DNA of 64,000 bases, taken from contig UQOY01000001.1 of the NCBI GenBank assembly GCA_900542825.1, positions 232,536 through 296,535 of the forward strand. Reading direction: 5' to 3'. The DNA is from an uncultured Collinsella sp. (GTDB taxonomy: Bacteria; Actinomycetota; Coriobacteriia; Coriobacteriales; Coriobacteriaceae). A program made the translations under genes and the position numbers. Position 1 is the stretch's first letter, and the number at the start of each line of letters is the position of its first letter. Under the pieces are notes generated by a model that made no database searches, was not told the DNA's origin, and worked only from the letters and a program-made list of their open reading frames with translations. Shown here piece after piece: positions 3,446 through 33,304 of the stretch.

Positions 3446-4624
3446 TTACTTGCCGTTGACGATGCGCTCGACGTCAGAAGCGATCATGAACTCCTCGTCC
3501 GTGGGGATGACGAAGATCTTGACCTTGGAATCCTTGGCAGACAGGCACCAAGCGCCGTCGCCACGCAGAGCGTTGCGGGCATGATCCATCTTGACGCCCA
3601 TAAAGGCCAGACGATCGGCCACGCCGGCGCGGACGGCCGGAGCGTGCTCGCCGATGCCGGCGGTAAAGACCAGGGTGTCCATGCCGCACATGGAGGTGGC
3701 CATCTCAGCGGCCTTTGCGGCAATCTTGTAGACGAACATATCGAAGGCGAGCTGGGCCTCGGGGTCGCCGGCAGCGGCGAGCTCCTCAACGTTGCGGCAG
3801 TCGTTGGTCTTGCCGCCTGTCACAGCCAAAAGGCCGGACTTCTTGTTCATCATCTCGTCGACCTCGTCGAAGGTGTAGCCGCCCTCGCGCTGCAGGTAGC
3901 AGACGGTGGCCGGGTCGATGGAGCCGCAGCGGGTGCCCATCATGACGCCGTCGAGCGGGGTGAGGCCCATGGTGGTGTCCATGCACTTGCCGTCCTCGAT
4001 GGCGCACAGGGAGGCACCGGAACCGATATGGCACACAACGACCTTGCGAGCCTCGCCGTTGGTCATCTCGGCGACCTTCTTGGAGATGTAGCGGTAGCTG
4101 GTGCCATGAGCGCCGTACTTACGGATGTGCAGCTTGTCGCAGACGTCCTTGGGCAGGGCGTAGGTCTTGGCGACCTCGGGCATGTTGAAGTGGAAAGCGG
4201 TGTCATAGACCGTGACGTTAGGCAGATCGGGATACTGCTCCAGGCAGAACTCGATAACGTTGGCCTCGGGGTTGTTGTGCAGCGGCGCCAGCGGGGCAAC
4301 CTCGCGGATCTTGGCGAGGACGTCCTCGTCGACGAGGGAGGAGTCGCCAAAGTACCAACCACCCTGAACGATACGGTGGCCGATGCCCTCGATCTTGACG
4401 CCGTTGGCCTCGAGGTCCTTCAGGACGACCTCGATGGCGACCTTGTGGTCGGGGAACTCGATGTTCTCGGTCACCTTCTTGGAACCGTTGGCAGCATGGG
4501 TGAAGGTACCGCCGGTAAAGCAGACGCGCTCGCAGGAGCCCTTTGCGGACACCTTGTGGGACTTGGTATCGATGACCTGATACTTAAGGGTCGAAGATCC
4601 TGCGTTGACGACCAGAACGTTCAT
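3446..4624 (-). CDS. acetate/propionate kinase paralog (second tandem copy)
   Basis: 392 aa, MNVLVVNAGSSTLKYQVIDTK... Collinear with the upstream ackA and clearly homologous, but divergent (paralog). GGGAG RBS. Confidence 0.9.
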   Translation of the reverse strand: MNVLVVNAGSSTLKYQVIDTKSHKVSAKGSCERVCFTGGTFTHAANGSKKVTENIEFPDHKVAIEVVLKDLEANGVKIEGIGHRIVQGGWYFGDSSLVDEDVLAKIREVAPLAPLHNNPEANVIEFCLEQYPDLPNVTVYDTAFHFNMPEVAKTYALPKDVCDKLHIRKYGAHGTSYRYISKKVAEMTNGEARKVVVCHIGSGASLCAIEDGKCMDTTMGLTPLDGVMMGTRCGSIDPATVCYLQREGGYTFDEVDEMMNKKSGLLAVTGGKTNDCRNVEELAAAGDPEAQLAFDMFVYKIAAKAAEMATSMCGMDTLVFTAGIGEHAPAVRAGVADRLAFMGVKMDHARNALRGDGAWCLSAKDSKVKIFVIPTDEEFMIASDVERIVNGK

Positions 4625-11218: not shown

Positions 11219-12136
11219 ATGCGCTGCCTTATCATCCACAACCCGGCATCGGGCCCCAGCTCAGATGAAATCTACGCGTTCACGCACGCCCTCGCGCAGG
11301 GTGGCGACGAGGTCGTGATGCGTTTTATCGGCGATGGCATGGAACCCGAGGACGCCGTGGCAGACGTGCGCGAGTTTGATCGCGTGGTGATTTCGGGCGG
11401 CGACGGCACCGTCTCCAACGTGCTCGACCAAATGCGTGGATGCGGTGTCCCCACGCTCGTCTTCCCCTCCGGCACGGCCTGCCTGTTCTTCAACAACATT
11501 GGCAATGCCCCCGAGGCCGCAGCGCTCGCCAAGGCCTGCCGCGCCGGCCGCACCGTCAAGGCGGACATGGGTGAGCTCTTTTGGCTCGACGAGAATGGCA
11601 ACGAAAAGCGCCACGGCTTTATTATCATCGCCGGCTCGGGCTACGATGCCGAGATCATGATGAAGGCCGCCCCAACCAAAAACGACATCGGCGAGATCGC
11701 CTATTTCCTGTCGGCGCTCGCCACACCCAACCCCACGGTGGCGCACTTTACGATTGAGCATGACGGCATTGTCGAGGAGCTCGATGGCATCTGCTGCATG
11801 GCAGGCAACACCTCGGTCATCCAAAACGACATCAACCTGTTCCCCAACTGCCGTATGGACGACGGCATGGTCGACATCGCGGTCATCGAGCCCGTAAAAA
11901 CCGTGCAGCTGCTCCCGACCGTGATCACCGCCGCGCTCGACCCCGCCGGCAAGGTGCTCGGCCGTCCGCAGTTCAAGATCATCCAGACCAAAGAAGCCAA
12001 GATCACCTGCACGCCATCGCTGGGCATGCAGTTCGATGGCGAAATCATCTCCAGCAACTCCGGCGTCTTTGGCGCCCGCGCGCTGCCGCAATGCCTCGAC
12101 CTCATCGTCGACGAATTTTCACCGCTCGGAAAATAG
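11219..12136 (+). CDS. diacylglycerol-kinase-family lipid kinase (YegS/DagK-like)
   Basis: DAGK_cat signature (VISGGDGTVSNV), 305 aa. Confidence 0.85.
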   Translation: MRCLIIHNPASGPSSDEIYAFTHALAQGGDEVVMRFIGDGMEPEDAVADVREFDRVVISGGDGTVSNVLDQMRGCGVPTLVFPSGTACLFFNNIGNAPEAAALAKACRAGRTVKADMGELFWLDENGNEKRHGFIIIAGSGYDAEIMMKAAPTKNDIGEIAYFLSALATPNPTVAHFTIEHDGIVEELDGICCMAGNTSVIQNDINLFPNCRMDDGMVDIAVIEPVKTVQLLPTVITAALDPAGKVLGRPQFKIIQTKEAKITCTPSLGMQFDGEIISSNSGVFGARALPQCLDLIVDEFSPLGK

Positions 12137-12238: not shown

Positions 12239-12545
12239 ATCCACATTGGTATGATATTCATCCAGTTATCGACTCTCCTGTTGTTTATGCAAATCCTAAA
12301 CAGCGGGAGAGTTTCCTTTTGAGCACTGCCTGGCGCTTTATTCAGCTATAGTAAATGCAGGGTGCCTTTATTTAACTAAAGCCACAGAATGAGTATTATT
12401 ATCCACTCATCGTATATTTCTACACGCTCATCGAGTAAAAGCTGTTGTCAAATGAATACTCTTTACACTTCCTTTAGGCTAGTAGATGTATTTATTAGCT
12501 GAAACTCCGTGCGGTTTCGCGGGGTTTCAACAGTTGGGAGGGATC

Positions 12546-14345
12546 ATGAGGTTTACTCATCCTGTCAACACGCTCAAGAAGCTTGGCTGCGGCCTTGCAT
12601 TTGGAGCAGCGGCCATTATGGCTATGCCGACTTCGGCGCTCGCTTGCACCCAGATCTACATGGGCAGCCAGCTCACGGCAGACGGCAACACGTACTACGG
12701 ACGTTCCGAGGACTTCGGCCCGCGCTACATCAAGCACTTTGGCATCGAGCCCGCACACAAGGACGGCAGCAAGTACACCTCGGTCGAGTCCGGCTTTGAA
12801 TACAAGTCCAAGGGCGCAACCTACCGCTACACCTTCGTTCGCGACAACCCCTCTCAGTGGGAAGATCGTTACGACGCATATTCCGAAGCTGGCATCAACG
12901 AGAAGGGCGTTTCCTGCTCTGCCACGCTGAGCACCTCCTATAACGAGAAGGCAGAGGAAGCCGACCCCGTCACCGAGGAGACCGGCATCGGCGAGTACAA
13001 CTACGCCAGCGTCATTCTGGGCGAGAGCGCCACGGCCCGCGAGGGTGTCGAGCTCCTCGGCAGCCTGATTGACGAGCAGGGCGTCTGCTCCAACGACCAG
13101 ATCATCATTGCCGACAACAACGAGACCTGGCTGTTTGCAGCGCTTTCCGGCCATCAGTGGATTGCCATGAGGCTCACCGACGATATCGCCTCGCTCAATC
13201 CCAACATCGGCAACCTCACCTATGACGTCGACCTCGACGACACCGAGAACTGCCTCCACTCCGAGGGTATCGAGTCCATGCCTAAGGAGAAGGGCTTTGC
13301 CGAGTACACCAACGGCAAGTTCGACGTCGCCAAGACCTACGGCGAGGAGATTAGCGAGGCCGACATGCACCAGTGGTCGCGCTATGTCCAGGGCCGCGAT
13401 TACTTCATGGCTCCGCTTGCCGAGGGTGCCGACTACGAGATCGTCAAGGACGAGCGCGAAGACGCTCGAGCCACAACCGGCGCCCTGGTCCACGAGATGC
13501 AGCCGCTGTTCTTTACGCCCGGCAAGTCCGACTGGAACACCTTTGAGATGATTCGTTCCTTCGCCGCTCGCGGCGAGAATGTCGCCGGCCTCAACGCCAA
13601 CACCGACGGCGCCTATGCCATCGGCTCCAACCGCAACACCGAGATCCACACTTTCCAGATCCGTCACGGCATGGACCCCGAGATCGCGACCATCCAGTGG
13701 GAGATGCTCTCCAACGCCGAGTTCTCCGTCGCTATCCCCCTCTATTCCGCACTGCTCACCGAGGTCAGCCCCTACTTCAGCGATCAGGACGTCTCCTTCG
13801 ATCACTGTGAAGAGGAAGACGTCGTGAACAACGAGGAGCCCAAGAACTCCATCAACTACGTCCTCATGGACATCAACACGCTTGCCTATGAGAACCGCGA
13901 CAATTGCGCCACCGGCGTCCGCGCCTATCTCGACGCCCTGCAGAAGGAGCTTATTGAGCAGAACCTGACCGTCGACGAGGCCATGCAGGACGCCGAGGAC
14001 ACCGAGGCCCGCACTGTCCTGGCCAACAAGGCCGGCAAGGCGGCGACCAAAGACACCTACGTCAAGTGCAAGGCCATGCTCGAGGAGATGCGCGACTACC
14101 TCAAGGAAGGCGACTTCTCCGAGGAGTTCGTCCCGAGCGACTACGATGCCGACAACGACTGCCTGGTCGAGTCCATCACCTATGCCGACGAGGCCCTCTC
14201 CGATGAGGACGTTGCCGACCCCGAGGTTAAGGAAGAAGCGGCCGAGGAGAAGTCCGAGGGCAACAACATGGCCGCCATGGCCGTTGGCGCCATCGTCATC
14301 ATCGGTGTCTGCGGCTTCGTGCTCTATCGTCGCAAGAAGGCCTAA
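12546..14345 (+). CDS. secreted C69-family dipeptidase with C-terminal membrane anchor
   Basis: Signal peptide then ...ALA-CTQIYMGSQLTADGNTYYGRSEDF (Ntn Cys nucleophile pattern of peptidase C69). C-terminal hydrophobic helix plus RRKKA tail. GGGAGGG RBS before MRF; the listed ORF starts 60 nt earlier. Confidence 0.8.
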   Translation: MRFTHPVNTLKKLGCGLAFGAAAIMAMPTSALACTQIYMGSQLTADGNTYYGRSEDFGPRYIKHFGIEPAHKDGSKYTSVESGFEYKSKGATYRYTFVRDNPSQWEDRYDAYSEAGINEKGVSCSATLSTSYNEKAEEADPVTEETGIGEYNYASVILGESATAREGVELLGSLIDEQGVCSNDQIIIADNNETWLFAALSGHQWIAMRLTDDIASLNPNIGNLTYDVDLDDTENCLHSEGIESMPKEKGFAEYTNGKFDVAKTYGEEISEADMHQWSRYVQGRDYFMAPLAEGADYEIVKDEREDARATTGALVHEMQPLFFTPGKSDWNTFEMIRSFAARGENVAGLNANTDGAYAIGSNRNTEIHTFQIRHGMDPEIATIQWEMLSNAEFSVAIPLYSALLTEVSPYFSDQDVSFDHCEEEDVVNNEEPKNSINYVLMDINTLAYENRDNCATGVRAYLDALQKELIEQNLTVDEAMQDAEDTEARTVLANKAGKAATKDTYVKCKAMLEEMRDYLKEGDFSEEFVPSDYDADNDCLVESITYADEALSDEDVADPEVKEEAAEEKSEGNNMAAMAVGAIVIIGVCGFVLYRRKKA

Positions 14346-14428
14346 GACCCTCACGTTCCAAGAAACGGGCGGGTCGCATGAGTCATCCCGACCGCTCAGC
14401 CTGCCCTTTTGACCGGTAGGAAACGCCG

Positions 14429-14451
14429 CTGAAATCTTTTCAAAAAAGATT
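14429..14451. promoter_or_regulatory. perfect 10-bp inverted repeat (candidate operator) upstream of an extended -10 element
   Basis: gaaatctttt-caa-aaaagatttc. TGcTATAGT (extended -10 like) lies at 14471-14479. Confidence 0.3.
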
Positions 14452-14538
14452 TCCCCGCACACACTTCGCTGTGCTATAGTGCAGCGCAACAGCAACTAGG
14501 TGCGACCGCGCCACGGCATCACGAAAGGAGCCACCAAG

Positions 14539-14604
14539 ATGATGAACACGATGAAGTCCCTCAACAACTGGTGGTGGCGTGATGCGAATACGATCGGTCG
14601 ATAG
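14539..14604 (+). CDS. leader peptide with three consecutive Trp codons (attenuation leader)
   Basis: AAAGGAG RBS 8 nt upstream. MMNTMKSLNNWWWRDANTIGR*, with TGGTGGTGG at 14569-14577. Confidence 0.55.
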   Translation: MMNTMKSLNNWWWRDANTIGR

Positions 14605-14643
14605 TGAGTCCCTCACGCCTATTTTTGCGCTCTAGGTGATTGG

Positions 14644-14676
14644 AAGGCCTCCGGTTTCGACCGGGGGCCTTTTTCT
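14644..14676 (+). terminator. intrinsic terminator (attenuator) in leader of ECF transporter operon
   Basis: aggcctccggt-ttcg-accgggggcct followed by tttttct, located between the leader peptide stop and the S-component start. Confidence 0.6.
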
Positions 14677-14753
14677 ATCTCGAGCCCGATCGCATTCGCA
14701 TCACGCGCCTCCGCTTTTCTCTTACGCCCCCCCTTTTTGAAAGGACTTTCACC

Positions 14754-15329
14754 ATGTCTCAGAACACCACCGCCACCGCCCAGCCCCGCACCGTCCAGAC
14801 CGCCGACCGCGGTAAACTCGATATCCGCGCCCTTGTCCTACTCGCCATTCTGCTTGCCGCCGGCTTCATCCTCAACTTCACCGTCGGTAAGGCAATCTCG
14901 GGTATCTCGGGCGGTATGATTAGCCCCGAATTCATTATCTCGGCCTTCTGCCTCACCATCCTGGTCGTTCGTCCCAACATCGGTCAGGCGCTCGTCATTG
15001 GTCTCATCTCGGCGGCCGTGATCCAGATCACTACTACCTCGCCGTTTGTCGATTTTGCCGCCGAAGGCATCGCCGCCATGCTCATGGCAGTCATTGTCAA
15101 CGCCGCCGCCAAGGACGGCCAGGTTAAGCCCGCCGTCGCCATCGTCGCAACCTTCGTGACCACCTTTGTCTCGGGCGTCATCTTCATGGTCATCAAGATG
15201 GCCATGCTCGGCGTGGTGGGCGAGCTCGCCGCAGCCATGCTGCCCGTCGTCGCCATGACCGCCGTCTTTAACGCCATCCTGGTCGGCGCTCTCTACCTGC
15301 CCATCCAGAAAGCCCTGAAGCTCAACTAA
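14754..15329 (+). CDS. ECF transporter substrate-specific (S) component, putative tryptophan-specific
   Basis: 191 aa, ~6 TM helices, first gene of an S / fused A1A2 / T operon. Tryptophan specificity is inferred only from the Trp-codon leader. Confidence 0.7.
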   Translation: MSQNTTATAQPRTVQTADRGKLDIRALVLLAILLAAGFILNFTVGKAISGISGGMISPEFIISAFCLTILVVRPNIGQALVIGLISAAVIQITTTSPFVDFAAEGIAAMLMAVIVNAAAKDGQVKPAVAIVATFVTTFVSGVIFMVIKMAMLGVVGELAAAMLPVVAMTAVFNAILVGALYLPIQKALKLN

Positions 15330-15542
15330 CCAGCCGCGGCTTTACGAGCCACCACATCTTGGCGTTCATTCGTCGCTCGTGTACCCAAGTACGCTTCGCT
15401 CCTCTTTCGCGCCAACCTGGGACCCCTCGTAAAGCCGTCTCTGTGCTTCACCACCAAAGACCGTCCCAAACAACGAGCTTTTGGGGACGTTCCCAAACGA
15501 CTTGTCATGTAAGAACGTCCCCAATGACCATGAAAGGTATCC

Positions 15543-17294
15543 ATGGAAACGATCATCAACGTCGACGATGTCTCGTTCTCCTATGGCACGCAAACCGAGC
15601 AGGCGCTCAGCCACGTCTCGCTCAGCGTGAACAAGGGAGATTTCATCGGCATCATCGGGCCCTCGGGCGCCGGTAAGTCCACACTTGCCGCTTGTCTGTC
15701 GGGTGCCGTGCCTCACCACTACACCGGCGCCTTTTATGGCTCCGTGTTAGTTGACGGCCACGACACCTGCGAGGTCTCGCTCACCGACATATCGCAGATT
15801 GTCGGCAGCGTGCTGCAAGACATTGACACGCAGATGGTCGCTTCGGTCGTTGAGGATGAAATGCTTTTTGGCCTCGAGAACTTTGGCGTACCGCACGACC
15901 AGATCGAGCAGCGCGTGAGTGAGACGCTTAAAACCGTCGGCATCAGCGACCTGCGCGACCGCGAGATCGCCACCCTCTCGGGCGGCCAAAAGCAAAAGGT
16001 TGCCATCGCCGCCATCCTCGCCATGCGCCCGCGCGTGCTCGTGCTTGACGAACCCACCGCAGCGCTCGACCCCGCCAGCTCCACGCTGGTCTTCGAGACG
16101 CTGCGCGAGGCAAACCGCGCGCTCGGCATCACCATCGTCGTCGTTGAACAAAAGGTCGCCTTGCTTTCGGAGTACTGCAGCCGTGTGTTGGTGCTCGATC
16201 GCGGCCAGATCGCGCTGCAAGGTGAGCCTCACGAGGTCTTCGCACGCACCGACGAGCTTCGCACCATCGGCGTCGATTGCCCGCGCGTCACGCGCATCTT
16301 CAACAGCCTCGAGGCCGATGGCCTGGTAAGCGGCACGCCCTGTCTGGATGTCAACGAGGCAGAACGACTGATCACGGAAATCGTAGACCCCGGCCGTGCG
16401 ACAAGCGATACCCGGACGCCCGCAGGCTCCCCGCACGCGCCGTCGCTGCGCCCGCATGCGAAAGACGCCGAGCCGGTACTCACCTTTGACCATGTCGAGT
16501 TTTCCTACCCCCATGGAGGTGCCGCCGTCCACGACCTCAACTTGACACTCTACCCCGGCGAGCTCGTGGGCATTGTCGGCCAAAACGGAGCCGGCAAAAC
16601 CACACTCACCAAACTGCTCACGGGCCTGCTCAAGCCCGCATCGGGCAGCGTACGCGTTACGGGCTTGGACACGGCATCGGTTCCCACGAGCCGCATCGCA
16701 CGCGAAGTGGCAACACTTTTCCAAAACCCCGACCGCCAAATCTGCAAAGACACCGTGCTCGACGAGGTCGCCTTTGGTCTAGAACTTGCCGGCATCGACC
16801 GCGCCGAAGCTCTACGTCGCGCCCAGCTGGTCATCGACCGCTTTGGTCTGCCCGCCGACGAGGCGCCGTTCTCGCTGTCGCGCGGCCAGCGCCAGATGGT
16901 GGCGCTCGCCTCCGTTGTAGTAGTCGAGCCCAAGATCGTGGTGCTCGACGAGCCCACGAGCGGTCTGGACTACCGCGAGTGCATGACCGTGATGGAAACG
17001 GTGCGTACCATGGCCGAGCGCGGTTGCGCCGTCATCATGGTCTGTCACGACATGGAAGTCGTTTCCGACTTTGCCGAGCGCATCGTGGTGATGGCTAACG
17101 GTCGCATCCTCGACCGCGGCCGCACGCACGAATTGTTCTCGAACATCGAACTCATGCAGCAAGCCTACGTTGAGCCGCCCCAGGTCATCGAACTCTCGCG
17201 CCGTCTGGCATCCACCGTCTCGCCCGCCTTTACACAGGTGAGTGAGGTCGCCGATATCGTTCGCATTACCGAGGAGATGGTCCGCCGTGGTTAA
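15543..17294 (+). CDS. ECF transporter fused tandem ATPase (EcfA1-EcfA2 fusion, YkoD-like)
   Basis: Two complete ABC cassettes (GPSGAGKST...LSGGQKQ...LDEPT and GQNGAGKTT...LSRGQRQ...LDEPT). Confidence 0.9.
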   Translation: METIINVDDVSFSYGTQTEQALSHVSLSVNKGDFIGIIGPSGAGKSTLAACLSGAVPHHYTGAFYGSVLVDGHDTCEVSLTDISQIVGSVLQDIDTQMVASVVEDEMLFGLENFGVPHDQIEQRVSETLKTVGISDLRDREIATLSGGQKQKVAIAAILAMRPRVLVLDEPTAALDPASSTLVFETLREANRALGITIVVVEQKVALLSEYCSRVLVLDRGQIALQGEPHEVFARTDELRTIGVDCPRVTRIFNSLEADGLVSGTPCLDVNEAERLITEIVDPGRATSDTRTPAGSPHAPSLRPHAKDAEPVLTFDHVEFSYPHGGAAVHDLNLTLYPGELVGIVGQNGAGKTTLTKLLTGLLKPASGSVRVTGLDTASVPTSRIAREVATLFQNPDRQICKDTVLDEVAFGLELAGIDRAEALRRAQLVIDRFGLPADEAPFSLSRGQRQMVALASVVVVEPKIVVLDEPTSGLDYRECMTVMETVRTMAERGCAVIMVCHDMEVVSDFAERIVVMANGRILDRGRTHELFSNIELMQQAYVEPPQVIELSRRLASTVSPAFTQVSEVADIVRITEEMVRRG

Positions 17295-18033
17295 CGTCAT
17301 CGACTACATGCCGGGCGACACGCTGCTGCACCGCCTGAACCCCGTCATCAAACTGGGCCTCGCCGCCGCCATCATCATCGGCATCTTCTTGTCCGACACC
17401 TATGTGGCATTGTTGGGCTTTCTGGCGCTCACGCTCGCGCTGGGAGCCTACGCCGGCGTCGTCGACCGCCTGCTCGCGCTGCTCAAGCTGCTGATTCCGC
17501 TCGCGCTCATCATGCTGGTGCTGCAGCTGGCTTTTATGCGCGATGGCAATGTGGTGTGGAGCTTTGTCACCGACACGGGTCTCATCACCGGTTCCAAGGC
17601 CTGTCTGCGTCTGCTGGGCGTGGCGCTTCCGCTTATTCTGATGCTCATGGTGACCAAGCTCAACGACCTTGCCAACGCCTGTGTCGAGGTACTGCACGTT
17701 CCGTATCGTTACGCCTTCACCTTTACCACGGCGCTGCGCTTTGTGCCAGTGTTTGGCCAGGAGATGAACGCCATTATGGAGGCACAAACCGCACGCGGCG
17801 TCGAGTACGACACCAAGAACCCCATCAAGAAGCTTCAGCTCATGCTGCCGTTGTGCGTGCCGCTACTGATCTCGAGCGTGGGTAAAACCGATGCCACGGC
17901 CTTGGCGGCCGAGCAGCGCGGCTTCTACCTGCGCACGCGCGCGAGCTCGTACAAGCGCTGCCCCATCAAGGGCCTGGACATTGCCATACTTATTGTCAGC
18001 ATTGCCCTTATCGTCCTCGGATTCCTGTTCTAA
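17287..18033 (+). CDS. ECF transporter transmembrane (T) component (EcfT/CbiQ family)
   Basis: CbiQ-like TM protein. GTG start overlaps the ATPase stop (GTGGTTAA); the listed ORF starts at 17242. Confidence 0.8.
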   Translation: MVNVIDYMPGDTLLHRLNPVIKLGLAAAIIIGIFLSDTYVALLGFLALTLALGAYAGVVDRLLALLKLLIPLALIMLVLQLAFMRDGNVVWSFVTDTGLITGSKACLRLLGVALPLILMLMVTKLNDLANACVEVLHVPYRYAFTFTTALRFVPVFGQEMNAIMEAQTARGVEYDTKNPIKKLQLMLPLCVPLLISSVGKTDATALAAEQRGFYLRTRASSYKRCPIKGLDIAILIVSIALIVLGFLF

Positions 18034-32925: not shown

Positions 32926-33076
32926 AAAGGATCCTTTCATGGGGCATTTCCATTCACACAATATTGTGATGCAAAAATGTGATGCCCTTGTTTCTAGCAT
33001 ATCCCTGCATTTTTTAAACGTTATATACGAATACTCTTGTTTGGTAAAGTGCAACGTGGTAGGGTCGTTACCACTT

Positions 33077-33235
33077 GATAGAGGCGCGGGCACGAAGAAC
33101 CGCGGGCGAGCCGGCAGGCTTTGACCCCGTGGGGAGGCGAAACCCGCCGAACTGGGCTTTTCGGGCACGAACAACCTGGTGGGCCTGCGGGAAACACCCG
33201 CAGGACTGTCTGCAGCAATGCGGGAGCGCTATCCG
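33077..33235 (+). promoter_or_regulatory. lysine riboswitch (L-box)
   Basis: 5' GAUAGAGGCGCG, internal GGGGAGGCGAAACCCGCCGAA, and 3' GGACUGUC...GAGCGCUAUCC match the conserved L-box P1 and core elements. Sits directly upstream of lysA-dapA-dapB-dapH. Confidence 0.8.
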
Positions 33236-33304
33236 GACATTGGGTCCACGCTATGCGGATTCGATGCGCAGATGGCGCCGTCTGGATAGCGAGGTTTACG
33301 GGAC

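Follow-up and report, generated by a model that had tools for sequence, protein, structure and literature searches.

We analyzed a 64,000-nucleotide stretch of DNA (hereafter, the window) from an uncultured Collinsella sp., a member of the Coriobacteriia (Actinomycetota). It contains an operon for an energy-coupling factor (ECF) transporter preceded by a short leader with three tandem Trp codons. A first-pass annotation, made from the letters alone, had placed here a 21-codon open reading frame (ORF) with its ribosome-binding site, three TGG codons, an intrinsic terminator, the start of the S-component gene, an extended -10 element, and a palindrome. All of these elements lie where it had put them, and its suggestion that the host might be an actinobacterium was also correct.

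Organization of the leader and the transporter operon

The transporter genes and the directional elements of the leader are on the plus strand. The leader ORF (14539-14604, with its stop codon at 14602-14604) comprises 21 codons and reads MMNTMKSLNNWWWRDANTIGR followed by the stop. A Shine-Dalgarno (SD) sequence, AAAGGAG (14524-14530), is located 8 nucleotides (nt) upstream of the leader ATG, and the three consecutive TGG codons at 14569-14577 form the proposed ribosome stall site. The intrinsic terminator (segments 3 and 4) occupies 14644-14676. Its stem consists of the arms AAGGCCUCCGGU (14645-14655) and ACCGGGGGCCUU (14660-14670) around a UUCG loop, and is followed by UUUUUCU, which ends at 14676. 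The S gene begins with an ATG at 14754 behind its own SD sequence, AAAGGA (14740-14745), and in the other lineages GAAAGG is found upstream of this ATG. The leader RNA from 14486 to 14753 has a minimum free energy (MFE) of -106 kcal/mol, with a z score of -5.4 against shuffled sequences. The window has a single copy of the triple TGG, TGGTGGTGG, where 0.41 are expected; at least one copy appeared in 32 of 100 shuffles, which is within chance. Because the triple TGG alone is not significant, it is mainly the comparative conservation described below that shows the leader to be real.

The S component (14754-15329, 191 aa) matches a single Pfam family, TrpP (PF17099), with an E-value of 4.1e-5; residues 25-188 align to profile positions 3-168 of 169. 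All 13 aligned relatives likewise match TrpP and no other family (best E-value, 1.9e-6), and several of them carry a precomputed PF17099 match. On these profile matches we designate the S component as TrpP-like, short of a proven family member. Its AlphaFold model contains six helices with a predicted local distance difference test (pLDDT) score of 72.8. The best matches of the model in the PDB are RibU, ThiT, FolT, and other S components, with template modeling (TM) scores of 0.5-0.7 and probabilities of 0.9-1.0, but with E-values of 0.1-2. The predicted fold is the six-helix bundle of an ECF S component. A sequence search of solved structures with the S protein gave a marginal match to FolT alone (E-value, 0.44).

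The S gene is followed by a fused EcfA1-EcfA2 ATPase (15543-17294, 583 aa) and by EcfT of the CbiQ family (17242-18033). The ATPase has two ABC_tran domains and matches the NCBIfam models ECF_ATPase_1 (461 bits) and ECF_ATPase_2 (438 bits), both above their cut-offs. EcfT matches Pfam CbiQ with an E-value of 1.8e-25. Its likely start is a GTG at 17287, giving a protein of 248 aa with an 8-nt overlap with the ATPase stop; the same overlap is present in the orthologous loci, in which EcfT also has 248 aa. The S, A, and T components are thus encoded together, and the gene order is the same in related loci. The Pfam and NCBIfam matches bear out the earlier assignment of an ECF operon, consisting of an S component, a fused A1A2 ATPase, and a T component, behind the leader.

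Conservation and distribution of the leader

With the S protein as query, the best 80 genomic matches all came from Collinsella at 96-99% identity, a sample with little divergence. The leader ORF is intact in 79 of these loci, and we assume a contig-end effect for the single locus without it. The Collinsella consensus is M(M/K)NTM(K/T)SLNNWWWRDANTIGR(Q/K/R), followed by the stop. The window has the stop codon TAG in place of the CAG of most Collinsella strains, which makes its peptide one residue shorter.

For an unbiased sample, seven distant loci were fetched by means of exact S-protein sequences (76-85% identity to that of the window), independently of any leader. The S protein of Olsenella uli, for instance, is 80% identical. 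A leader with an SD sequence, an ATG, and the same peptide ending is present in all seven. The peptides are MSRIARTSMNWWWRSLSAVGRS in Olsenella uli (L081), MINFSNNSVMNWWWRDAYTVGRL in L083, MTKTYLNNNWWWHNLVSVGRS in L085, MNKSAMSTSNNWWWRDAFSVGRL in L089, MFQSMNNNWWWRNSISLGRW in L090, MNRNAVSLARTSNNWWWRDSHSIGRS in L091, and MSAMQNLPMNWWWRDANTVGRL in L092, each followed by a stop. They share the pattern N-WWW-[R/H]-x3-[S/T]-[I/V/L]-G-R-x-stop, and a GC-rich hairpin with a T-run lies 3' of the leader in every case. In the other lineages, the SD sequence of the leader is GAAAGGAG or GAGAGGAG, 6-9 nt upstream of the ATG.

All orthologous leaders found keep the three Trp codons unchanged, and the N-terminal part of the peptide varies in both length and sequence. 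The spacing behind the Trp codons is fixed: the stop lies 9 codons past the last Trp codon (8 in the window). An invariant RNA block, CGGUCGA-nn-GURAG, surrounds the stop codon. In the unbiased loci, Gly is always encoded by GGT and Arg always by CGA, and this lack of synonymous change suggests that it is the RNA, rather than the peptide, that is constrained. The genes upstream of the distant loci all differ (MarR, DAGK, AICARFT, aminotransferase, and helicase genes), indicating that the leader travels with the S gene. The idea that the WWW leader would be conserved upstream of orthologous operons was thus upheld both within Collinsella and in the distant loci.

A scan of metagenomes with the pattern TGGTGGTGGC-N17-GGTCGA-NN-GTRAG returned 119 stretches, of which 7 are chance matches inside GC-rich ORFs and about 110 are further leaders; these loci carry the motif by construction, and they show its distribution, not its frequency. 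In all cases with sufficient downstream sequence, the leader is followed by a gene for a TrpP-like S component (42-99% identity) or, where the S gene is missing, by the ECF ATPase gene. The scan also found the leader before S genes that are only 42-56% identical to that of the window. A hairpin with a T-run is present in 70 of 70 distinct leaders, with energies of -12 to -29 kcal/mol.

Helix 1:2

In ribosome-free folds, every lineage pairs GGCGYGA with UCRCGCC. The 5' strand of this helix in the window is the core of segment 1, GGCGUGA (14576-14582), which is formed by the last Trp codon together with the four bases that follow it. Segment 2 (14592-14620) covers the stop-codon region; it contains the block CGGUCGA-nn-GURAG and then UCACGCC (14613-14619), which is the 3' strand of the helix. 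Segment 2 is also the proposed 5' strand of an antiterminator. Across lineages, UCRCGCC is positioned 10-17 nt 3' of the stop codon.

Covariation was measured on an alignment of 30 sequences (A2). In this alignment, 88.5% of the cells are paired, compared with 25-58% in slid controls. Four of the seven pairs have changed on both sides (GUGA/UCAC, GCGA/UCGC, and GCAG/CUGC). There are 12 doubly changed cells compared with 4.3 in shuffles, and none of 500 shuffles reached the observed values; the shuffle control may be inflated by related sequences, whereas the slid control is clean. The pairing of 14576-14582 with 14613-14619 is therefore a classical helix 1:2, and it covaries.

The first-pass annotation had also drawn attention to a short hairpin, GTGAG-TCC-CTCAC (14604-14616), which overlaps the TAG stop codon of the leader ORF. 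This hairpin is present in the window, but its conservation is confined to Collinsella-like lineages. In the other lineages, CUGCGCC or UCGCGCC stands in place of its 3' part, unable to pair with GUGAG but able to pair with segment 1. The hairpin and helix 1:2 use the same CUCAC, and we rejected the hairpin as a conserved element.

A further pairing touches the translation start of the leader. GCCACCA (14531-14537), which forms the spacer between the SD sequence and the ATG, is complementary to UGGUGGC in the Trp codons (14572-14578), and the two are paired in the MFE structure of the full leader. At the corresponding places in Olsenella-type leaders, GCGCCA stands opposite UGGCGC. Such a pairing could restrict the leader to a single round of translation.

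Folding of the nascent leader and a proposed antiterminator

The nascent RNA, ending at the terminator loop, was folded with a ribosome placed either at the Trp codons or at the stop codon; the mask of the stalled ribosome reached 13 nt beyond the first base of the third TGG. With the ribosome stalled, GAUCGG (14592-14597) in the window is predicted to pair with CCGGUU (14651-14656), and GCCU (14617-14620) with AGGC (14645-14648), so that 11 of the 13 bases of the 5' arm of the terminator are sequestered. Most other lineages form one long irregular hairpin, in which CGAUCG-U-GAGUCUC-UCGCG pairs with CGCGA...GAGGGCUC-CGGUUG. The mean probability that the 5' arm pairs with upstream RNA is 0.68 in the stalled state and 0.29 at the stop codon for 27 lineages (0.71 and 0.26, respectively, for the window), a contrast that is partly trivial, as masking more RNA necessarily lowers pairing. 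Pairing is higher in the stalled state in 26 of the 27 lineages and is worth -6.6 kcal/mol on average. In the apical portion of the putative antiterminator, a modest degree of co-evolution was seen (permutation p = 0.0085). The modeled geometry fits the classical attenuation model: the block CGGUCGA-nn-GURAG is covered when the ribosome is at the stop codon, and a ribosome on the WWW codons, 18 nt 5' of the block, leaves it free. The antiterminator pairing of segment 2 with the 5' arm of the terminator is plausible in these models, with little statistical support.

Proposed mechanism

We consider it likely, with a probability of roughly 80%, that the leader is a trp-type ribosome-mediated transcription attenuator, located in the Coriobacteriia and wired to a TrpP-like ECF importer. 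The least secure parts of this reading are the precise antiterminator pairing and the nature of the substrate. The layout of trp-operon attenuation on an uptake system, as proposed in the first-pass annotation, is supported by the conserved Trp codons, the terminator, and helix 1:2. Its further proposal, an importer of Trp or a Trp-derived metabolite that is induced when charged tRNA-Trp is low, gains support from TrpP as the sole family match and from the invariant Trp codons.

In the proposed mechanism, transcription would start about 50 nt 5' of the leader ORF, and a ribosome would translate the leader while the polymerase proceeds. When charged tRNA-Trp is plentiful, the ribosome would reach the stop codon (14602-14604) and cover segment 2 from 14592 to about 14615. 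The terminator at 14644-14676 could then form, and transcription would end before the S gene. When charged tRNA-Trp is scarce, the ribosome would stall with one of the Trp codons (14569-14577) in its A site, covering segment 1 and leaving segment 2 free. Segment 2 would pair with the emerging 5' arm of the terminator (14592-97 with 14651-56, and 14617-20 with 14645-48), the terminator would be blocked, and the polymerase would read through into trpP-ecfA1A2-ecfT. Without translation, segment 1 (14576-82) would pair with segment 2 (14613-19), giving termination by default.

Several results weigh against this interpretation. The nascent folds are no more stable than those of dinucleotide shuffles (mean z, +0.24), and the duplex has a z score of only -0.9 against shuffled segment 2 (0.06 in the window). 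Antiterminator pairing with a lineage's own 5' arm does not differ significantly from that with foreign arms (p = 0.17), and for the window, most foreign post-stop segments are better partners than its own. Column-wise pair counts are uninformative for the terminated fold and the antiterminator, with the terminator arms one column off register; within this kind of counting, a clean test is possible for the core of helix 1:2 alone. In equilibrium folds, the terminator wins under every ribosome mask. The S protein scores 23.9 bits, below the PF17099 gathering threshold of 27.2. The sampling bias of the pattern scan is a further such point, and a literature search on whether Collinsella is self-sufficient or auxotrophic for Trp gave no answer.

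Both strands of the putative antiterminator are too conserved to covary. Because the terminator wins at equilibrium, control would have to be kinetic and co-transcriptional, as is established for the trp leader of E. coli. Folding did give the structures that were expected to compete with the terminator, namely a covarying helix 1:2 and, with a ribosome modeled on the Trp codons, sequestration of the 5' arm; the statistics for the antiterminator are weak.

Substrate and signal

Tryptophan is the probable substrate, judging from the TrpP family name together with the Trp-codon leader. The attenuator could instead be read correctly and the cargo be a Trp precursor or an indole compound (indole, anthranilate, or a Trp-containing or Trp-derived molecule) that eases a shortage of Trp-tRNA indirectly. 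The weak TrpP match fits this alternative, as do the tandem TrpP-like paralogs, about 48% identical, that follow one leader in other lineages and suggest two specificities; in addition, no close relative of the S component that had been solved or characterized was found. On the other hand, TrpP is the sole family for 13 of 13 relatives, and sensing of Trp-tRNA makes most sense for Trp uptake. TrpP of B. subtilis is described as a Trp transport gene under Trp-specific control by TRAP (PMC10327191). Taken together, we regard an indole-type cargo as improbable.

The signal itself could also differ, if the leader encoded an arrest peptide resembling TnaC. Such a peptide would sense free Trp inside the ribosome, and the response would be to Trp excess, or would run via Rho, rather than to tRNA charging. 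The C-terminal [S/T]-[I/V/L]-G-R-x is indeed as conserved as the Trp codons, and the Trp-containing leader peptide of E. coli tnaC can control a Trp permease gene, tnaB. However, the invariant GGT and CGA codons of the unbiased loci indicate a constraint at the level of RNA, as does the complementarity between the C-terminal coding region and the terminator. A run of three Trp codons with an intrinsic terminator behind it is the hallmark of a leader that senses starvation, and an ATP-driven importer induced by excess Trp makes little sense. We give this explanation very little credence.

Promoter region and palindrome

An extended -10 element, TGcTATAGT (14472-14480), places the putative transcription start near 14487. 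In nearly all lineages, (G)TATAGT keeps a constant spacing to the leader, and a strict consensus scan for promoters found no -35/-10 pair. We infer that the promoter is located at 14472-14480.

A perfect 10-bp palindrome, GAAATCTTTT-CAA-AAAAGATTTC, occupies 14431-14453, approximately -56 to -34 from the putative start. It is unique in the window, where 0 are expected, and almost all of the 79 Collinsella loci retain it, with a spacer of 3-5 nt; it is not present in the non-Collinsella lineages compared. The earlier reading of this palindrome as an operator is possible in view of its perfection, its uniqueness, and its retention in Collinsella. The operator is a candidate, and an A/T-rich UP element, given the GC-rich genome, would account for the palindrome just as well.

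Olsenella-type lineages have an imperfect inverted repeat, GTAAC-N5-6-GTTTAC, where Collinsella has the A/T palindrome. Immediately 3' of this repeat come a -35 box (CTTGCG) and a -10 box (GTATAGT); the repeat is about 40-60 nt 5' of the -10 element and was seen in L081, L085, L090, L091, L098, L105, L112, L117, L143, and others. It could be a binding site for a regulator. HisR-like regulators of the TrpR family have been reported in Coriobacteriales (PMC9413887).

These features raise the question of whether a DNA-binding protein at the palindrome, which covers the -35 region, exerts the main control, the leader and its hairpin being a constitutive partial terminator or a leftover. The different repeat at the same place in other lineages and the existence of TrpR-family regulators speak for it, but we hold it to be highly unlikely: the palindrome is lineage-specific whereas conservation of the leader extends to S proteins of 42% identity, a leftover would not be expected to have an intact ORF with fixed spacing, invariant WWW, and a covarying helix, a UP element would explain the A/T-rich palindrome equally well, and dual control as in E. 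coli trp would be compatible with attenuation rather than a rival to it.

A long-range helix enclosing the terminator

The leader contains one further structural element. Strand A (14570-14602) covers the 3' half of the leader ORF, Trp codons included, and strand A' (14681-14716) starts 5 nt past the T-run of the terminator and ends in GCGCCUCCGC; in Collinsella, A' is followed by UUUUCUCUU. In the window, the A:A' duplex comprises about 30 bp with an energy of -47.2 kcal/mol and a z score of -5.7, and none of 200 shuffles was as good. It is visible in the MFE structure of the leader and encloses the terminator. Equally strong duplexes with different sequences occur in L083, L089, L092, L109, L181, L124, L105, and L211. 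The duplex is significant in about 9 of 25 lineages and is absent in Olsenella-type lineages. The two strands co-evolve, with a mean of -19.9 kcal/mol for self pairs and -16.5 kcal/mol for cross pairs, and none of 10000 permutations was as low.

Because A' lies downstream of the terminator, it cannot be the antiterminator. We also rejected A:A' as a conserved second terminator; among the lineages compared, a U-run 3' of A' is found in Collinsella and L089 alone. Tentatively, and with considerable doubt, A:A' might form a second layer of control, in the form of a giant terminator with the stall site as its 5' arm, a lock against re-translation of the leader, or an RNase III site. In the giant-terminator version, a stalled ribosome would directly occlude the 5' arm. 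A role as a 5' stabilizer is also possible. If a second layer were confirmed, it would be a mechanism not described for classical attenuators. A:A' is the one element that could raise the weight of the finding, and it poses a concrete puzzle that can be addressed by experiment.

Variation within and around the operon

The S gene and the ATPase gene are separated by a structured spacer of 213 nt (15330-15542), with two long inverted repeats (15337-15364/15410-15437 and 15481-15501/15504-15524). Its MFE is -70.5 kcal/mol (z, -5.3), and 48 of 80 Collinsella loci share it, with a conservation of 86-96%. We considered whether the spacer is a decayed second S paralog and ruled this out, as tblastn gave no match. 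The place of the spacer is taken in other lineages by terminator-like hairpins or by a second, in some cases truncated, TrpP paralog. This varied content hints at uncoupled expression of the S component and the ECF module.

Behind the same leader, many lineages have two TrpP-like S genes in tandem that share about 48% identity (second gene at 4139-4684 in L083 and at 4390-4935 in L089; also in L112 and L117). L090 has only a 67-aa remnant of the second S gene (4163-4366), followed by a terminator-like hairpin. In five contigs (L100, L141, L152, L153, and L156), the leader, the terminator, and A' directly precede ecfA1A2 without an S gene, and the sister contigs L109, L173, and L205, with near-identical leaders, have kept it. 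The contigs without an S gene may represent a natural deletion variant that leaves the energizing module alone under the Trp leader.

Upstream of the leader, a gene for a C69-family dipeptidase (12486-14345, plus strand) is located between a DAGK-like gene (11219-12136) and the leader. The dipeptidase gene looks like a Collinsella-specific insertion, because the DAGK-like gene directly adjoins the leader in L083 and L089. Elsewhere in the window, a lysine riboswitch (Rfam RF00168) is located at 33071-33239 on the plus strand, with 74.4 bits against a gathering score of 30 and an E-value of 1.5e-17.

Comparison with known systems

This lysine riboswitch is the single true Rfam match in the window, and no RNA family was matched at the leader. 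Neither Trp_leader (RF00513) nor the T-box (RF00230) was found in the window at the gathering score, or in 14400-14800 at E-values up to 10. A prior description of the leader was not found in the literature searched, whose coverage is incomplete and amounts to no proof of absence. The suggestion that the arrangement is previously undescribed therefore holds for the element itself, which is absent from Rfam and from that literature; control of a transporter by a leader peptide is not new. Translation of a short leader ORF is known to gate the transcription of transporter genes, and one such case is reported in PMC3641672. The known cases differ from the present leader in responding to another amino acid or signal, in serving other transporter classes, and in having unrelated sequences.

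The leader most likely represents a classic mechanism in a new place, which turns an importer on when charged tRNA-Trp is low. It extends classical leader-peptide attenuation to the Coriobacteriia, which are abundant Actinomycetota of the human gut, and to an ECF-type importer. The attenuator is widespread in gut metagenomes, would control uptake and not synthesis, and is mechanistically expected. It provides independent, regulatory evidence that S components left unannotated as 'hypothetical' would import Trp or something that spares Trp, which is relevant to the modeling of competition for Trp and of the production of indole metabolites in the gut. The leader motif is compact and highly conserved, and genome pipelines could annotate it.

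The closest mechanistic parallel is trpL of E. coli (Rfam RF00513). Both leaders have a short translated ORF with tandem Trp codons, a helix 1:2, and, ahead of the first structural gene, an intrinsic terminator (helix 3:4), and in both the stop codon is placed such that a terminating ribosome would mask segment 2. The antiterminator helix 2:3 of trpL has a putative counterpart in the present leader. There is no similarity in sequence or to the covariance model, and trpL has two Trp codons where the present leader has three. Moreover, trpL belongs to another phylum and controls biosynthesis genes, whereas the present leader precedes an importer and has the extra long-range helix enclosing the terminator. 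The trpL of C. glutamicum is likewise actinobacterial, with three tandem Trp codons in its leader peptide and ribosome-mediated attenuation, but it controls the trp biosynthesis operon (PMC11995493). Its neighbor trpP has its own leaderless transcript, outside the control of trpL (PMC11995493).

Uptake genes of the TrpP family are under other kinds of Trp control in the Firmicutes. PMC10327191, citing Yakhnin et al. 2004, places trpP (yhaG) of B. subtilis under translational control by TRAP. That gene shares with the present one the family name (PF17099) and a Trp-specific control at the RNA level, and differs in that TRAP binds free Trp and blocks the ribosome binding site; in the Collinsella leader, a translating ribosome would sense charged tRNA-Trp and act on termination. 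The comparison extends to a third regulator. In other Firmicutes, Trp-specific T-box leaders reportedly precede trpP. These T-boxes resemble the present leader in sensing the charging of tRNA-Trp, in choosing between a terminator and an antiterminator, and in serving an ECF S-component gene. They bind uncharged tRNA directly, whereas here the ribosome would be the sensor, and no T-box was found. With the T-box as a third sensor in other Firmicutes, control of the TrpP family appears convergent: the family would be placed under Trp control by the ribosome in Collinsella and by TRAP in B. subtilis (PMC10327191).

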